A DNA stretch of 64,000 nucleotides from the NCBI GenBank assembly GCA_046350775.1, contig JAXLZS010000001.1, positions 156,379 through 220,378 on the forward strand, given 5' to 3'. The position numbers were made by a program, and so were the translations under genes. Origin of the DNA: Minisyncoccota bacterium. Lineage in GTDB: Bacteria; Patescibacteriota; Minisyncoccia; Phycocordibacterales; UBA5272. Below the pieces are notes generated by a model. It saw only the letters and a list, made by a program, of their open reading frames with translations, was not told the DNA's origin and did no database searches. Below, piece after piece: positions 6,176 to 52,650 of this stretch. Numbering within the stretch: the first letter of the stretch is position 1; each line of letters begins with the position of its first letter.

Positions 6176-7192
6176 ATGAAAGAAAAAAAAGTTTTGGTAT
6201 CTGGTGTCCAATCTAGCGGGCAGCTACATATCGGAAATTATTTCGGAGCTATCAAGCAAATGGTCGACCTTGTAAACACAGGAGAGTATGAATCTTATAT
6301 ATTCTTAGCCGATTATCACTCAATGACGTCTCTTACAAATAGAGAAGAAAGGCTAAAAAATACTTTCGAGAGTGTCGCTAGTTATTTGGCGTGCGGACTT
6401 AATCCTAAAAAAGTAAATATTTTTAAACAAAGCGATGTAAAACAAGTGACAGAACTTGCTTGGATATTAAATACAGTGACTCCAATACCCATGCTATTTT
6501 TATCTCATGCATTTAAAGATAAAAAAGAAAGCGATGTAGAAAAAATGAAGGATGTAAATGTCGGACTTTTTGATTATCCTGTACTCATGGCGGCGGATAT
6601 ATTAATTTATAATGCAGATGTGGTACCAGTTGGTAAAGATCAAGAGCAACACATAGAATACACAAGAGATATAGCTGGAAAATATAATAGAGCTTATAAT
6701 GTAAATACTTTTAAATCTCCAAAAAGTTATTCAGTAAAAGGTATGGAGACAGTTTTAGGTGTTGATGGTAATAAAATGGCCAAAAGTAAAGGTAACCAAA
6801 TATCAATGTTTGCGCCAGAAGAAGAAATAAAAAAGAAAGTAATGAGTATCACAACAGACAGCAAACTCCCAAATGAAATAAAGAATCCTGACGAAAATAA
6901 TATTTATAAAATTCATAAATTATTCTTAAATAAAGAAGAAGATAGATTGTTAAGAGAAAAATTTGAAAATAGCGACAAAATTCCTTACGGATATAAAGAG
7001 GCAAAAGAAGATTTGTTAAAGACTATACTTTCATATTTTAAAGATATGAGAAAAAAATATGAATATTATACGAGCACAACAAAAGGCAAAAAGGAAGTGA
7101 TGTCAGTCATGAAAAATGGGACTAAAAAAGCAAACAAAAAAGCTGAAGAAATGATGAAGAAAGTTAGAAAAGAAGTTGGTCTTGATTTTTAA
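6176..7192 (+). CDS. trpS: tryptophanyl-tRNA synthetase
   Basis: Class I HIGH motif (GQLHIGNYFGA) and KMSKS variant (KMAKSKGN). TrpRS-typical VLVSGVQSSG N-terminus. Confidence 0.85.
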   Translation: MKEKKVLVSGVQSSGQLHIGNYFGAIKQMVDLVNTGEYESYIFLADYHSMTSLTNREERLKNTFESVASYLACGLNPKKVNIFKQSDVKQVTELAWILNTVTPIPMLFLSHAFKDKKESDVEKMKDVNVGLFDYPVLMAADILIYNADVVPVGKDQEQHIEYTRDIAGKYNRAYNVNTFKSPKSYSVKGMETVLGVDGNKMAKSKGNQISMFAPEEEIKKKVMSITTDSKLPNEIKNPDENNIYKIHKLFLNKEEDRLLREKFENSDKIPYGYKEAKEDLLKTILSYFKDMRKKYEYYTSTTKGKKEVMSVMKNGTKKANKKAEEMMKKVRKEVGLDF

Positions 7193-22643: not shown

Positions 22644-22672
22644 ATATAATTAATAATGAAAAGAAATGAAAA

Positions 22673-22701
22673 GAATCGATTCCAAAGCTGAATCGATTTT
22701 T
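22673..22701 (+). terminator. rho-independent terminator of dnaX
   Basis: Self-complementary gaatcgatt...aatcgatt stem followed by TTTTTATTT. Confidence 0.65.
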
Positions 22702-23020
22702 ATTTAGATTATTAAATAAAGCTTTTTTATAGATATACGTGTCGTAAAAGATATATTGTGCGAAGCGTATATAAAAAAGAAAGAGACTTCTCTATATGGA
22801 TTTATATCTACAGAGACTTTATAAATACTTTTAATTTATTTTTATACAAAAACAAAACGCGACCGATATGAGGCGGTGCGTTTTGCTTTAGTCACCCAAG
22901 ACTAGTAGGAGAGACAGGAGTGTGGGATTCTTCTATCTCCCCTATCAAAAATTATAACAAAAGACTTTTGATATACAATATTTACAAAATAAAAATTTAT
23001 TTTATTATTTTATTTTTTAA

Positions 23021-23302
23021 TTATTTCTTTTTCGGATCTAAAATTTCTAAATTGATACCAAGTAAAGCAAAGAAGCTTACAATAGGTAGCCAAATCATTT
23101 CGAATAAAGTAACCAATTTTATTTGTTTGAAAACCAAAAAGAAATCTAAAATCATTTTTGTGTCCACATCAATTTTCTTCATAGATTTTTGATATCCTTC
23201 ATCAGCATTACCTTGTATAGTAAAAAAAGCAACTACAGCTCCTAAAACTAGAGCAATAACACAATAAATTATAAGTCTGGATATATAGATCTCAAATACC
23301 AT
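23021..23302 (-). CDS. hypothetical small membrane protein (2 TM) downstream of gltX
   Basis: Same-strand ORF with hydrophobic helices. Confidence 0.35.
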   Translation of the reverse strand: MVFEIYISRLIIYCVIALVLGAVVAFFTIQGNADEGYQKSMKKIDVDTKMILDFFLVFKQIKLVTLFEMIWLPIVSFFALLGINLEILDPKKK

Positions 23303-23449
23303 ATTATTTTAAAAATTTAATAGTGTAATAAAAACCCAAAATACTTCCTCCAATAAAAAGGATTAAAAATAATATAAATAGATCTTGAAATGATATATCG
23401 ATTAACATTTCCTTATACTACCATATATAAAGTAATATGTCAAAGGTAA

Positions 23450-37947: not shown

Positions 37948-38289
37948 TCATGATTTGCAAGTTTTTGCTAGAGAATATCCAGCAAAGATAGCAGACTCCT
38001 CCGTATTAAAATAAATCTTATTTTCTTCTTTTATACTAGATTTACAATTAAAATAATAATATTTTGTACCCCTCTTGCTAGCATAAATAAATTTATCTTT
38101 TGGATTTTGAGCAAGCGTATTTGAAAAACCATAAATAAGAGATTCATTTCCAAATGAAAATTGAGATGAGTAGACTTTGTATCCTACAAATATATTGATT
38201 ATTAGAAGGCTTAAAATTATAGATAGAAAAGAAGGACCTTTCAGCTCGATATTGATTTTTTTCAAAGTTTCTGTTATACTTTTCCACAT
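37948..38289 (-). CDS. small membrane-anchored/secreted protein with a C-terminal Ada-type metal-binding-like motif
   Basis: N-terminal TM helix. C-terminal FNCKSS...EESAIFAGYSLAKTC. Confidence 0.35.
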   Translation of the reverse strand: MWKSITETLKKINIELKGPSFLSIILSLLIINIFVGYKVYSSQFSFGNESLIYGFSNTLAQNPKDKFIYASKRGTKYYYFNCKSSIKEENKIYFNTEESAIFAGYSLAKTCKS

Positions 38290-38340
38290 ATTTTATAGAG
38301 AAATACTTTAAAATACTTAATAATTATATAACAAAAAACT

Positions 38341-38613
38341 ATGGCACATCGTAAGGCGGCCGGAACCGCGAAAAACCTGCGCGACAGTCAACCAAAGTAT
38401 CTGGGTCTCAAAAAAGGATCTGGAGAGGCTGTCAAAGCGGGCAATATCCTTATTCGCCAGAGAGGAACAAAATTCCTAGCTGGGAAAAATGTAGGCATGG
38501 GTAAAGATCACACTCTCTTTGCTTTGAAAGATGGAGTGGTCAATTTCTCCCAAAAAAGACAAGTAAAATTTGATAATACTACAGTAATGAAAAAAGTGAT
38601 CAGTGTACTCTAG
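38341..38613 (+). CDS. rpmA: 50S ribosomal protein L27
   Basis: [45 protein letters not shown]. Confidence 0.85.
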
Positions 38614-38640
38614 GATAAATATCAAATAAAAACAAAAAAA

Positions 38641-38674
38641 CCTTCCATGAAAATGAGAGGGTTTTTTGTTTTTT
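38641..38674 (+). terminator. rho-independent terminator of rpmA
   Basis: ccttc...gaggg imperfect stem followed by TTTTTTGTTTTTT. Confidence 0.55.
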
Positions 38675-38727
38675 CTCGTATTGAGAAAAAACAACTTAAA
38701 CTTCTAAAAATAAGAGGTCACAAATTT

Positions 38728-38762
38728 TGTAAAATAAAAATCCCTCTGCATTTTGCAGAGGG
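38728..38762 (-). terminator. rho-independent terminator of rplI
   Basis: ccctctgca-ttt-tgcagaggg 9-bp stem. The T-run is on the - strand (aaaataaaaa on +). Confidence 0.7.
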
Positions 38763-38865
38763 AAAAAGATAGGTACGTTCGAAACTTAAACTTCTAAAAT
38801 GACATGAAATGAAAAAAGTTTTCACTCCCCAATAAGTATACTCTATCTAAAAATATTGTCAAATA

Positions 38866-39330
38866 TTATTTGACCAGAATCTTAACTTTCTTTTTAAAGA
38901 CTTTATCTGTGAGCTCTATCTCAAATTCACCCTTTTGCTTTATAGACTGCTTTCCTATGACTATCTGATCTGGATTAAGAGAAATTTTTATCTTTTTATA
39001 AATAGCGTCTGCTATATCACCTTCTCTGATAGCAGAAAAAAGATGTCCTTTGTCATCAGATTTGTGACCAAGTATTTCTAGAAAACCATCTGATTCAGTA
39101 TTTAATATTTCTTGTAGAGAATTTATAGATTTTATAAAAATATTTTTATCTATCTCTCTTTGGGATTGTTTATTTTTGTTTTCATCTTCTATCTTTTTGA
39201 TAGCTTGTGGAGTCGCTATGATGACTTGCTTTTTTGGAAGAAGTACATTCATGACATATCCATCAGCGAGATCTTTTATCTCACCTCTTCTACCAACTCT
39301 AGCTACATCTTGTATAAAAATCACTTTCAT
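38866..39330 (-). CDS. rplI: 50S ribosomal protein L9
   Basis: MKVIFIQDVARVGRRGEIKDLADGYVMNVLLPKKQVIIATP. Confidence 0.85.
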   Translation of the reverse strand: MKVIFIQDVARVGRRGEIKDLADGYVMNVLLPKKQVIIATPQAIKKIEDENKNKQSQREIDKNIFIKSINSLQEILNTESDGFLEILGHKSDDKGHLFSAIREGDIADAIYKKIKISLNPDQIVIGKQSIKQKGEFEIELTDKVFKKKVKILVK

Positions 39331-46349: not shown

Positions 46350-46385
46350 TAGTTTTTAATAAATTAAAGCTTTTTTAATACGTTA

Positions 46386-46414
46386 ATATTAACATAAAAG
46401 TCCTTTTTTTGCAA
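46386..46414 (-). promoter_or_regulatory. sigma70-type promoter (TTGCAA-17-TAATAT) for rplU
   Basis: Direct reading on the - strand. Confidence 0.45.
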
Positions 46415-46470
46415 ATAAAAAGGAGATCTCTCAAATATATCTTGTATATAAGAAATCTCCTTAAAATAAT

Positions 46471-46740
46471 TCATTTTTTATTTCCCTTTGGAATTATTAT
46501 GGGTTTTGAATAATGTAAATCGGATTCATACCGAATAATATTCAAAACTTTTGCTTTTTTACTGCCGACAAAAACTCTTTTATTTATCTGAGAAAAAGAC
46601 AAAATGTCTTCTCTTGATAAACTGACTTGTCTTCCACAGAATACACATTTTATGATTTTTGAATTTTCTTTATCAAGAAGAATGTGTCCTGACTCCGTCT
46701 GACAAACAGGGCAAATATGCGTAAATTTTTTTTCCGCCAT
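46471..46740 (-). CDS. small zinc-ribbon protein
   Basis: CPVCQTE...CVFCGRQV. Confidence 0.4.
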   Translation of the reverse strand: MAEKKFTHICPVCQTESGHILLDKENSKIIKCVFCGRQVSLSREDILSFSQINKRVFVGSKKAKVLNIIRYESDLHYSKPIIIPKGNKK

Positions 46741-46804
46741 TTTATTAAATTTTTAAAGGGTTATATATTTAATATAACATTTTTAAAAAAACTGTCAATA
46801 TAAA

Positions 46805-46832
46805 AGAAAAAACCCGTGAATACGGGCTTTTT
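46805..46832. terminator. stem-loop terminator (cccgt-gaat-acggg), bidirectional A/T flanks
   Basis: Hairpin plus T-runs on both strands. Confidence 0.55.
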
Positions 46833-46841
46833 ATTAAACTT

Positions 46842-50006: not shown

Positions 50007-50037
50007 ATTTAGAGATTATAGCATGTAAAATTATGAA

Positions 50038-50066
50038 AAGAAAAAAACCACATTTCTGTGGTTTTA
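50038..50066 (-). terminator. terminator of the 50079..50591 gene
   Basis: aaccaca-tttct-gtggtt stem. T-run on the - strand. Confidence 0.6.
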
Positions 50067-50078
50067 CTAAAATTTAGC

Positions 50079-50591
50079 CTAATCAAAGTTTCCGTCATAT
50101 CGGTCAAGGGTTGGCCTTGAACCAATCTTTCCCCCTGTCGTAAAATAATCTCCGCTTGGAACAAGCTGCTCACGAATTTCACTGTAAAGACTTTTGTGAA
50201 TTTTCCAATGCGATTCATCTTTTAACACTGTTTCCTCATCACCGATTTTGTACTTCACAATTGTATCACGTACAATACGACTGATCGTTTTGAATTTTTT
50301 AGCAAGTTCGCTATCTGTGTACCAATCTTCTTCTACTACAACTTTTTTCATTTTCGCAACATCTGAAAATTCTTGAATACTCTCAAGAACCTGTGCAACA
50401 AACGCTTGATTGTATGCGTAAGTATGATATCCATTTTTACGCTTAAAGATTGCAATGGCCATATCTGGAAACTGTTCACGCAGATTATCGATAATTCGAT
50501 TAGCTTTTGCTCTTGGAAAATCTGATGGCATTTTTTCATAAATACCAGATTTTGTACAATATCCTTCAGGAACAATAAATGGTTTTGACAT
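50079..50591 (-). CDS. hypothetical protein on GC-atypical DNA (likely horizontally acquired)
   Basis: ORF. Local GC is about 45-49% against about 29% in the flanks. It has its own terminator. Confidence 0.45.
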   Translation of the reverse strand: MSKPFIVPEGYCTKSGIYEKMPSDFPRAKANRIIDNLREQFPDMAIAIFKRKNGYHTYAYNQAFVAQVLESIQEFSDVAKMKKVVVEEDWYTDSELAKKFKTISRIVRDTIVKYKIGDEETVLKDESHWKIHKSLYSEIREQLVPSGDYFTTGGKIGSRPTLDRYDGNFD

Positions 50592-50750
50592 TTTGTTTTA
50601 TTTTTATAATGAACAAAAAAGATTCCTATTTTGAAATCATAAATTGTTTTATGATCTCAAAAAGGGAGGCAAGAAATACTTGCCTTATCTTTATAATTCT
50701 CTAAAAGTTTACTCTACATGAAAGCTTTTTCCTTTTAGAACACCTGGGAG

Positions 50751-51272
50751 CTATCGAGAGCCAGGTTCGCTGGAAATATATGCTATTGGTCTAGGAACAA
50801 ACAATGTTTGATACCTGAGAGGTATACCCCATTCTTTATCGTAACAACATCCGCAATTCAACTGATGATATTCAAAACCTTCACGGTTTGTATGAATATA
50901 ATCACGAAACTTAAACACTTGCGGAACTTCAGAAGAAGTTTGTGTCACGAAAAGATTGGTTACATACCAATCCAATGCATAAATTTTCCAACCGTGTAAG
51001 GGCACTATTTGCTGAAATCTATATTGTCTTCTACCAAACCATTCCACATTACTATAGCGATCAATAAAATCAGCTACAGATTTTACAGCTACAGGAAATG
51101 AATGAATTACTTCATCTATAATCTGATGGTTATGGTCAAAGAAAAACAATTTTTTGTAGTTCTGATTTCTATATGCTTGAATATTTTTAGCCATATAGTT
51201 TTGATCTCGCAAAAATACCACTGAATTACTTTTCATATAATACAAATAAAAGAACAAAAAATTGCAACACAC
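50751..51272 (-). CDS. hypothetical protein on GC-atypical DNA. The true start is probably an internal ATG (MKSNS... or MAKNIQ...)
   Basis: ORF. The listed start is GTG. A hairpin terminator lies downstream (aggcaag-tatttc-ttgcct plus T-run). Confidence 0.4.
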   Translation of the reverse strand: MCCNFLFFYLYYMKSNSVVFLRDQNYMAKNIQAYRNQNYKKLFFFDHNHQIIDEVIHSFPVAVKSVADFIDRYSNVEWFGRRQYRFQQIVPLHGWKIYALDWYVTNLFVTQTSSEVPQVFKFRDYIHTNREGFEYHQLNCGCCYDKEWGIPLRYQTLFVPRPIAYISSEPGSR

Positions 51273-51830
51273 CCTCTTCTGATATTGCGTCCTTTAACAC
51301 AAAATTAAGAGCGTCGAGTTGTACCTGATTAGTACTTGGTGTCTGGATTTTTCCTCTCCAGTGGAGTTTGTTTTACTAATTCACTTTCATAAACTTATGC
51401 TTCCCACAAGAAATTATTCTAAAGATTCTTATCTTTGCAATTAGACAAGAAATACTTCTTAGAAAATCGCTCCTTATAAAATCCTCTATCATATAGATAG
51501 TTTTTGGATTTTACGAGCGAAAGGAAGGGGTAAATTAGTCGTATTAACTTACAAAATCACTCTCGTAAGTTCAGTAATATCTCTAAAGCCATACAATTAT
51601 CATTTGTCCGTATAAGATAAAGAAAAAGGGCTCTACTTTAAGAGTTTTATTACTACTGCCAAAGAATACGTAAGGCAACTTTAATATTAGGTGTGCCGTT
51701 CAAACCTAATTAGAATGATAGCATAATATAATTTATTTGTCAAGTGTTTTTAGATAAAAATCAAATATTCTTCTTAATATTTGCAAAAAAGTACTGTAAT
51801 ACAAGAATATTTTAGAAGTATAAGGAAAAT

Positions 51831-52235
51831 GAAAATAAAAAACCGTCGCAAAATAATGCGCGACGGCTTTTAATCGGAGCTTTAAGGCAAGATTTTTGTG
51901 GAAAATTGTGCACATTTTTCCAAATTCTTACTCCAACCTACTTCAAGCTTTATGCCACTGAGTGTAAAAAGCTATTTAATTAATAAATTATTTGGCTCCA
52001 TGGCCAAAAATCCATTAAATCATCAGACACATTTTCTTTCGTGTCAGCCCAGATTTGTTAGGGCTCCCCATAGAAGTCGATGGGTATGATTATTTTGCAG
52101 ATAAAGGTGCGGCGGGACATCTTGCCAATCTTGGCACGAAGACTTTTTTCAGTCCAATGCGCCCCGAATCGAATACTAATTGTCATAATAATTACAATAT
52201 TAGCACCAACTATCCATATCTTATCACAAGAAATA
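51831..52235 (+). ncRNA. candidate structured non-coding RNA of unknown class, flanked by ~85-bp direct repeats
   Basis: No credible ORF, elevated GC, a promoter-like TTGTCAAG box upstream, and an internal hairpin at 51843..51866. Short similarities to RNase P RNA conserved blocks (GGGCTCC.ATAG..., AAAGGTGCGG, GGCACGAAGAC) are unconvincing by eye. Confidence 0.15.
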
Positions 52236-52415
52236 TTTTTTGTCAATATCTTTTAACCAAAAATCAAGGATTTTTCTCATAATTCGCAAAAAAGTATTGC
52301 AAAATAAGGATTTTTTAAAGATCTTAATAAAATATTATTTTCCTATTTATTAAAAATTCTATGGAAATATATCGATTTGAAATATTTTTAATTATGTGTT
52401 ATAGTATTAAAGATA

Positions 52416-52610
52416 TTGTACTTTTTTAAATCTTATAAAAAAATCAACATGGGATGGTATTTATTTTTCATTGGTTTACTTTTTTCTGGTATAGGTTTAT
52501 TTTTGCTGGAAAATAAAATTATTAAAACAGTAGGCATAATTTTGGTAGTAATAGCAGCCATAATGATACTCTTAATACTTATTCATGGAATCAGCAAAAG
52601 ACAAAACTAA
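52416..52610 (+). CDS. small membrane protein (2 TM)
   Basis: ORF. The second copy of the duplicated promoter-like block lies upstream, and a terminator follows. Confidence 0.35.
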   Translation: MYFFKSYKKINMGWYLFFIGLLFSGIGLFLLENKIIKTVGIILVVIAAIMILLILIHGISKRQN

Positions 52611-52611
52611 C

Positions 52612-52650
52612 CAAAACCCCGCTCTAATGCGGGGATTGTTTTTTTTATTT
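52612..52650. terminator. bidirectional terminator between the 52416 gene and rpoD
   Basis: ccccgc-tctaat-gcgggg stem followed by TTGTTTTTTTTATTTT. Confidence 0.7.

Follow-up and report, generated by a model that had tools for sequence, protein, structure and literature searches.

A conserved candidate RNA gene and a lineage-specific segment upstream of rmuC in a Minisyncoccota bacterium

We analyzed a 64,000-nucleotide stretch of DNA (hereafter the window) from a Minisyncoccota bacterium of the Patescibacteriota (contig JAXLZS010000001.1, positions 156,379 to 220,378) and describe the interval between its rmuC gene and its rpoD-dnaG operon. Read along the minus strand, on which these features lie, the interval holds a gene-free unit with its own promoter and terminator (ncB), a second gene-free unit headed by a promoter (ncA), and two small open reading frames (ORFs), ORF2 and ORF1, the last of them next to rmuC. 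A first-pass annotation of the sequence had treated everything from 50010 to 52415 as one compositionally foreign island. Our comparisons divide the interval into two parts: ncB, a predicted structured RNA gene conserved in another genome, and an insert of ~1.8 kb with ncA, ORF2 and ORF1, which is absent from relatives and host-like in composition. Both minus-strand ORFs of the earlier annotation are present (ORF2 had been called at 50751-51272), each has a hairpin terminator behind it, and the two ORF-free stretches it listed (51273-51736 and 51831-52235) exist; combined, they form the longest run of this very gene-dense window in which no ORF reaches 100 aa. Tandem repeats were not found across the proposed island. 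Over the whole 64 kb, ARAGORN detected neither a tRNA nor a transfer-messenger RNA (tmRNA), and Rfam 15 yielded nothing at gathering score. The same arrangement is found in 11 independent contigs (5 from JGI and 6 from Logan) at 99.96-100% identity. Since these contigs were assembled independently and agree, the region is not an assembly artefact.

The sequence ahead of ncB contains a -35 element TTGACA (52246-52241) and, after a 17-nt spacer, a TG-extended -10 element TAAGAT (52223-52218), which we read as a strong, near-consensus sigma-70-type promoter with an extended -10. The 5' end of the predicted RNA is AUAGUUGGUGCU. For comparison we used ten relatives, the loci L013-L022, whose RmuC proteins are 73-83% identical to that of the window. 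Judged by its RmuC relatives, the window comes from a Paceibacteria-like member of the Patescibacteria. One of them, L022, carries a homolog of ncB at 6676-7013 (nhmmer, E = 1.5e-19), also upstream of rmuC. The promoter, the 5' end, four internal blocks (AAUCAUACCCRUC.ACUUCUAYGGGGAG, GGAAGUAGGUUGGAGUAAGAA, AAAAUGUGCAC and AAAGCUCCRAUUAAAAGCCG) and the terminator are all conserved between the two copies. Identity across ncB and the 110 nt at its promoter, which we call the cassette, is 69-71%. Because synonymous sites of rmuC are saturated between the same genomes (dS ~1.9), this level of identity implies that ncB and its cassette are under selection. The L022 copy is shorter than that of the window by 60-80 nt, which places the core of ncB under ~300 nt.

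The minus strand of ncB folds with a z-score of -5.1, or -5.6 with separate dinucleotide shuffles, on a background of -0.64 +/- 1.24 in 18 control windows (minimum -3.6). The plus strand gives -3.4, and the RNA of the L022 copy -6.0. The stretch 51831-52235 is thus structured, as the first-pass annotation had suspected, but it belongs to a conserved RNA gene and not to the insert. RNAalifold predicts 59 base pairs for the two sequences together. Nine pairs are altered on both sides yet still paired, compared with 0-2 in controls with slid partners; of the nine, two belong to the stem of the terminator and one to a CCCAU/AUGGG hairpin. Large insertions and deletions relative to L022 are not multiples of three, and the 60-aa ORF within ncB is not kept in L022, for which reason we rejected a small-protein gene. 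We likewise rejected an rmuC leader, as rmuC has its own conserved promoter behind the ncB terminator. In these two sequences ncB combines the general features of a structured non-coding RNA (promoter, terminator, conservation through compensatory changes, lack of coding capacity), and we interpret it as a conserved, stand-alone structured RNA gene that is so far unclassified; the details of its predicted structure are provisional. As a separate observation, positions 51899-51922 within ncB form a near-perfect palindrome, TGGAAAATTGTGCACATTTTTCCA, with a GTGCAC core at its centre (UGUGCAC in the RNA), which is conserved in L022. The palindrome could form a hairpin, serve in kissing or dimerisation, or be bound by a protein.

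With a length of 300-375 nt, a promoter and a terminator to itself and an insert at its 3' end, ncB resembles rnpB, ssrA and tRNA loci, and the window has no tRNA or Rfam match of its own. It might then be a divergent housekeeping RNA missed by standard models: RNase P RNA, tmRNA, signal recognition particle (SRP) RNA, 6S RNA, or a tRNA interrupted by a group I intron. A 2026 report describes intron-split tRNA genes of Patescibacteria that standard annotation tools overlook (PMC13011429). However, short-stretch Rfam searches with ncB and its L022 copy recovered no family, including those named, even at E <= 10, giving terminator-driven sub-threshold matches only, and ARAGORN found neither tRNA nor tmRNA in ncB. 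By eye, ncB lacks RNase P CR-I and CR-V, a CCA-type 3' end and features of tmRNA, SRP RNA and 6S RNA; without a D-arm, a T-arm or a group I intron match, an intron-split tRNA does not fit either. With a core under ~300 nt, and missing at the equivalent site in nine relatives, ncB is very improbable as an RNA of this kind. Similarly to OLE, GOLLD, ROOL and raiA-type RNAs, ncB (and possibly ncA) would be a multi-helix RNA of several hundred nucleotides with its own promoter and terminator, and ncB is conserved with compensatory changes. Unlike them, ncB has no match in Rfam 15 and is known from two genomes so far, a far narrower distribution. Two pattern scans of metagenomes for its conserved blocks returned 0 matches. 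A pattern for the 3' block returned 0 matches in viral sequences, where nine 16-mer matches are attributable to chance.

The surroundings of ncB differ sharply between the window and the relatives. All ten relatives share the gene order F2-F3-F4-F5(-)-F0(-)-rmuC(+), with an F0-rmuC spacer of 70-127 nt in nine and 654 nt in L022. None of the ten has rpoD-dnaG, ORF1 or ORF2 within 10 kb of rmuC, and none of F0-F6 was found in the window. Since F0-F6 are absent and rpoD-dnaG stands in their place, we conclude that the window genome is rearranged at rmuC; the rmuC/rpoD junction itself is conserved in 0 of the 10 relatives. Upstream of rmuC, ORF1, ORF2 and ncA are likewise missing from every relative. 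In L022, only GGTTTTTTCTTTTCATAATTTTACATGCTATAATCCATAAAT separates the ncB terminator from the rmuC start codon, with no interruption. In the window, GGTTTTTTATTTTCAT comes after the ncB terminator and gives way to unrelated sequence, and the same 33 rmuC-proximal nucleotides stand after the ORF1 terminator instead. Because the L022 junction is contiguous, we place an insert of ~1.8 kb (~51828-50050) within the T-rich tail of the ncB terminator. The insert is flanked by an imperfect direct repeat of 16/17 nt, GGTTTTTTATTTTCAT on the ncB side and GGTTTTTTTCTTTTCAT on the rmuC side, although the contiguous L022 junction is the stronger argument for an insertion than this repeat. Repeats resembling att sites, which the first-pass annotation proposed to look for at the outer limits of the island, were not found at 50010 or 52415. 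The features of the locus are listed in Table 1.

The first-pass annotation had based a foreign origin on a rise in G+C content (GC) from about 29% to about 45-50% over 50.08-52.2 kb. The computed values do not bear this out: GC is 0.334 for 50080-52200 and 0.320 for 50010-52415, against 0.309 for the whole window, and the highest value of any 300-bp segment within the proposed island is 0.383. As many as 36% of 2.4-kb windows are as GC-rich as the proposed island or richer. By part, GC is 0.361 in ORF1, 0.331 in ORF2, 0.321 in 51273-51736 and 0.373 in 51831-52235; the stretch 51273-51736 is ORF-free as described, but it is not richer in GC. Both GC and GC at third codon positions (GC3) of ORF1 and ORF2 fall inside the spread of 34 genes of the window genome (z = 0.7-1.4; GC3 z = 0.7), and by tetranucleotide distance the insert comes no higher than the top 7.7% of windows. 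Sliding-window GC, GC3 and tetranucleotides are thus all host-like. As the computed GC is uniform, we reject a compositional island. Detection of islands by GC would miss such an insert, and in this case GC misled the earlier annotation, whose suggestion of an acquired or mobile remnant survives in a different form: the extra DNA is lineage-specific and integrase-less, with other limits than 50010-52415 and no foreign composition as its basis.

The host-like composition could also be explained without any insertion, if ncB, ncA, ORF2 and ORF1 formed an ancestral, fast-evolving block that the sampled relatives have lost, and if the repeat at the junctions were a coincidental terminator tail. 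T-tail motifs are common in the window, and the gene order at rmuC differs here anyway, with rpoD-dnaG replacing F0-F6. Such a history requires, however, that all ten relatives have lost ORF1, ORF2 and ncA, and that in L022 a precise excision left the terminator contiguous with an intact rmuC promoter. In addition, the sole relative of ORF1 (73% identity) lies in an unrelated, integrase-bearing contig of 41% GC, which implies horizontal transfer. We regard an ancestral block as the least probable of the explanations considered here.

Table 1. Features between rpoD-dnaG and rmuC, with coordinates in the window
Feature	Position	Strand	Basis
ncB promoter cassette, 110 nt	52210..52320	-	promoter scan, ~70-nt conserved upstream region
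Predicted ncB RNA gene, ~375 nt	51832..52211	-	promoter, terminator, L022 homolog, fold
Predicted ncB intrinsic terminator, 13-bp stem, 6 G-C pairs, T-run	51838..51871	-	terminator scan
Left direct repeat GGTTTTTTATTTTCAT, in ncB terminator T-tail	51829..51844	-	three-way alignment, pattern search
ncA promoter cassette	51706..51817	-	promoter scan, cassette profile
ncA, ~470 nt, ORF-free	51237..51708	-	strand-specific fold
ORF2, 161 aa	50751..51236	-	HMMER family
ORF2 terminator hairpin (50685-50667), palindrome (50667-50624) and T-run	50624..50685	-	terminator scan, inverted repeat I5
ORF1, 170 aa	50079..50591	-	single homolog P0002
Predicted ORF1 intrinsic terminator, 9-bp stem	50044..50065	-	terminator scan
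Right direct repeat GGTTTTTTTCTTTTCAT, downstream insert junction	50033..50049	-	alignment with L022, pattern search
rmuC promoter, TG-extended -10 CATGCTATAAT	50007..50032	-	near-identical in L022
Predicted empty-site junction (insert absent), GCGACGGTTTTTT[AC]TTTTCATAATTTTACATGCTATAAT			A or C between the two parts

The ncA unit, which opens the insert, starts with a second promoter cassette, with a -35 element TTGACA (51743-51738), a 17-nt spacer and a TG-extended -10 element TATCAT (51720-51715). This cassette is paralogous to that of ncB (E = 2.4e-22 against the cassette profile). The three known cassettes (those of ncB, ncA and the L022 ncB) are equidistant at 69% identity, which argues against a recent local duplication. 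We found no further significant copies in the window or in the loci L013-L028, the next-best nhmmer matches having E = 0.03 and 0.27. The body of ncA has at least 10 stops in every frame, and its predicted fold is strand-specific (z = -4.1/-4.6 on the minus strand vs -0.96 on the plus strand). In a predicted long-range helix, GGCACACC near the 5' end pairs with GGGUGUGUUGC, which lies just before a U-rich tract and the start of ORF2, and no terminator was detected between ncA and ORF2. Homologs of ncA were absent from the relatives, from the contigs and upstream regions of ORF2 homologs, from phage records and from Rfam, where a search at E <= 10 gave nothing beyond sub-threshold matches driven by terminators. 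The idea that ncA is a diverged ncB body was rejected, because the two bodies show no detectable similarity, and so was a decayed gene, because six-frame comparison with related contigs and relatives gave no similarity. Among the generic features of a structured RNA, ncA appears to have the promoter and the strand-specific stability only, and we predict that it either serves ORF2 as a structured leader or is an RNA in its own right.

A further gene-free unit was observed in L022. This unit, ncC (6454-6600), consists of a promoter and a terminator (CCCCC/GGGGG) over ~125 nt, directly upstream of the ncB cassette; no counterpart was found in the window or in the loci L013-L028.

The recurrence of the cassette could also be explained by a history that dispenses with site-specific integration: a tandem duplication of the ncB unit in which unrelated DNA then replaced the second RNA body, or a modular exchange of cassette, payload, terminator and tail by homologous recombination at the conserved cassettes and tails. 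The site upstream of rmuC would then be a small array of interchangeable units, ncC and ncB in L022 and ncB with ncA-ORF2-ORF1 in the window. The insert does open directly after the ncB tail with a paralogous 110-nt cassette and closes with a similar T-tail, the L022 site too has two tandem promoter-terminator units, and a history of this type is in keeping with the lack of a recombinase and with the host-like composition. Yet the equidistance of the cassettes at 69% speaks against a recent local duplication, the bodies of ncA and ncB have no detectable similarity, ncC has no cassette, and such units are found in two genomes only. We consider duplication or modular exchange rather unlikely.

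The protein-coding part of the insert belongs to two very rare families, which are otherwise seen in phage-like or integrase-bearing contigs. The first-pass annotation had called both proteins ORFans without a recognisable domain. The second half of this description holds, as both fall below every curated Pfam and NCBIfam threshold; the first half holds only in part, since ORF1 has one non-self homolog and ORF2, with a family of 18 cluster representatives, is no ORFan.

The true start of ORF2 is at 51236 and not at 51272, because its homologs align from residues 1-5. A word-index search with ORF2 returned the self match only, and an exhaustive HMMER search of 1.84 billion representatives recovered 18 clusters, the best at 55% identity. 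The family alignment (A4) shows the motifs VVFLR..NYM, F.DH..VIHAFPV, PP.GW..YAL.W, CGC and YQVVFSP.PIA, with D34, H45 and Q143 invariant and CGC near-invariant. A metal site is suggested by the conserved residues D34, H45, H115, C128 and C130. No match to ORF2 was found in Pfam, NCBIfam, PHROGs, PADLOC, PDB, IMG/VR or GenBank phages. An AlphaFold2 (AF2) model, built without the family alignment, was unusable (mean predicted confidence, pLDDT, 36.6). The ratio of nonsynonymous to synonymous substitution rates (dN/dS) is 0.19 in comparison with P0004. The homologs of ORF2 occur in same-strand runs of small unannotated genes.

In one case (contig of P0011; ENA ERZ1426817), a small islet opens with a distant homolog of ORF2 and also has a Zn-ribbon protein, a STIV_B116-like protein of viral type and other small ORFs. 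A gene-free gap of 570 nt, next to genes for TrmB, MgsA and an XerC-like protein, precedes the islet, and the chromosome is otherwise housekeeping. The arrangement recalls the window, where a long non-coding stretch precedes ORF2. We also observed a palindrome with 20-nt arms (85% complementary), a 4-nt loop and a T-run between the ORF2 terminator and the start of ORF1. This palindrome could act as a further terminator or in the manner of an operator.

Among 5.8 billion proteins, ORF1 has one non-self homolog (P0002, 73% identity). The dN/dS of ORF1 is 0.07; together with the value of 0.19 for ORF2, this shows that both proteins are under purifying selection. The contig of P0002 (L006) has 41% GC and encodes, four genes away, a large serine integrase (Pfam Resolvase, Recombinase and Zn_ribbon_recom; phrog_95, E = 7e-60), of which no homolog was found in the window. 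Curated matches to ORF1 were absent from Pfam, NCBIfam, PHROGs, PADLOC and PDB sequences. Its AF2 model has a pLDDT of 48.6, and a fold search of BFVD was empty. Residues 51-138 match weakly the C-terminal part of the PHROG 1726 anti-repressors (E = 8e-5). The mobile context of the homolog is in line with a relationship to these proteins, but the match is partial and is not reproduced by P0002, ORF1 has no Pfam KilAC or ANT domain, and structural support is lacking. The contigs with homologs of ORF1 or of ORF2 share no other genes, and the two occur together only here.

Phage morons are autonomous promoter-gene-terminator units that are acquired singly. ORF1 and ORF2 are similar to morons in that each has its terminator, that they travel independently, and that they sit among small unannotated ORFs elsewhere. 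They differ in that their neighbours in the bacterial chromosome are housekeeping genes, that no prophage surrounds them, and that neither has a match in IMG/VR or GenBank phages.

The segment has a strong promoter, an RNA of 470 nt whose predicted fold is strand-specific, and two small proteins that evolve under purifying selection. These parts could also make up a functional RNA-protein module in which the RNA would regulate the proteins or act as their partner. Such a module, with a role in addiction, abortive infection or another form of defence, would be kept for its usefulness and would not be decaying. Its accessory distribution, its association with mobile contexts and its stable arrangement (~100% identity in 11 contigs from many samples) would agree with such a role. 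Known systems of this type provide little likeness, however. In type III toxin-antitoxin systems such as ToxIN, tandem antitoxin RNA repeats lie upstream of a ToxN/AbiQ toxin gene, whereas the segment has no tandem repeats and no PADLOC or Pfam toxin match. In retrons, a reverse transcriptase gene lies next to the msr-msd RNA, whereas neither ORF1 nor ORF2 has a reverse transcriptase domain. No curated PADLOC or Pfam defence match was found, only a weak sub-threshold match to Csm3 (E = 0.004); ncA is not kept upstream of any ORF2 homolog, and ORF1 and ORF2 co-occur only here, with tandem terminators between them. We judge a module of this kind improbable. Somewhat less improbable, though still doubtful, is a broader proposal in which ncB and ncA would represent a new class of structured RNA of Patescibacteria that shares a selected 110-nt cassette, the site upstream of rmuC would be a modular array, and ncA-ORF2-ORF1 would be an accessory RNA-protein module, for example for defence or addiction.

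In the reading that we favour, with a probability of roughly 0.5, ncB is the resident small-RNA gene, at the 3' end of which the lineage has acquired the ncA-ORF2-ORF1 segment, either as an old, ameliorated, integrase-less remnant of a mobile element or phage, or as captured cargo. In outline, ncB would be a host gene for a multi-helix RNA of ~300-375 nt, transcribed from its own promoter to its intrinsic terminator, kept by selection upstream of rmuC in at least two genomes of Patescibacteria, and possibly acting in trans or by binding protein. In the lineage of the window, a segment of ~1.8 kb would have entered the T-rich tail of the ncB terminator and brought its own ncB-type cassette, the 470-nt ncA, ORF2 and ORF1, with a terminator for each ORF. 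Cargo derived from a mobile element or phage may have integrated there, or may have been captured by recombination at the conserved sequences of cassette and tail; the recombinase would have been lost afterwards and the composition fully ameliorated. Such a history would parallel that of integrative elements, for which tRNA and tmRNA genes offer targets at their 3' ends. In common with islets and integrative remnants at the 3' ends of tRNA, tmRNA and small-RNA genes, the insert is lineage-specific and absent from relatives, lies exactly at the ncB terminator tail, is bracketed by what may be a short direct repeat and carries small genes whose relatives are found only in integrase-bearing or phage-like contexts. 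In contrast to them, it has no integrase or excisionase and no compositional deviation, its repeat is imperfect, T-rich and non-unique, its target is an unclassified gene rather than a tRNA or tmRNA gene, and it starts with a paralog of the cassette of its target.

Several observations weigh against this reading. The insert opens with a cassette paralogous to that of ncB (69% identity), which is unexpected under a simple integration of foreign DNA; duplication or cassette-mediated recombination fits this feature better. The flanking repeat, apart from being imperfect and T-rich, contains a motif, TTTTTNTTTTCAT, of which the window has 6 occurrences where 0.44 would be expected, and the two copies could be two ordinary terminator tails. 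The insert bears no compositional sign of foreign origin. As the first-pass annotation had already remarked, no integrase or transposase is visible, either in the insert or, by Pfam on called genes, within ~10 kb. ORF1 and ORF2 were not found in IMG/VR, nor by DNA or protein searches in GenBank phages, and the label "phage-derived" therefore rests on the style of the gene neighbourhood only. On the side of the RNA, the structure and covariation of ncB come from one pair of sequences. Other intergenic gaps of this genome also have strongly negative fold z-scores, and since several of them are likewise strongly structured, these scores are less specific. Finally, nine of the ten relatives have no ncB upstream of rmuC, and the (poorly resolved) RmuC tree does not join the window and L022 as sisters. 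For these two reasons ncB may not be a stable host gene but an accessory or mobile one.

The element of greatest interest is ncB, which the earlier annotation had counted as part of the island, since it is a candidate for a new structured RNA that selection maintains in a clade without cultured members. To our knowledge, the RNA biology of this clade is almost unexplored. Patescibacteria (the candidate phyla radiation, CPR) have tiny, tightly packed genomes, and because of this small size and density ~900 nt of structured, promoter-driven non-coding sequence are unlikely to be idle. The insert illustrates that reduced genomes can gain and keep accessory genes with no compositional trace. The proteins of the ORF2 family, with its 18 clusters, and of ORF1, with its two known members, are real and constrained, and their folds match nothing known. 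Current views are not changed by these findings unless ncB or ncA prove to have a defined function.

Some observations concern the neighbourhood of the insert and other parts of the window. A TG-extended TATAAT ends exactly 8 nt before the ATG of rmuC in the window genome and in all ten relatives, which suggests that the rmuC mRNA is leaderless and that this is conserved. Three gene-free gaps fold far better than their shuffles, namely 38290-38865 (z = -6.9, plus strand), 46350-46841 (z = -6.5, minus strand) and 22644-23449 (z = -4.5, plus strand). At gathering score, Rfam has no match in any of the three, and under permissive settings the matches in 38200-38950 were all sub-threshold. A small unit on the minus strand extends from a promoter at 38862 to a terminator at 38763-38741. 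Judging by their predicted folds, the three gaps may hold further unannotated RNAs. On the plus strand, 52377-52634 contains an ORF for a small hydrophobic protein, of 64 aa from a TTG at 52416 or 53 aa from an ATG at 52449, with its own promoter (52377-52405) and a bidirectional terminator (52617-52634) in common with rpoD. Public gene calls place a 42-aa ORF on the opposite strand there instead.

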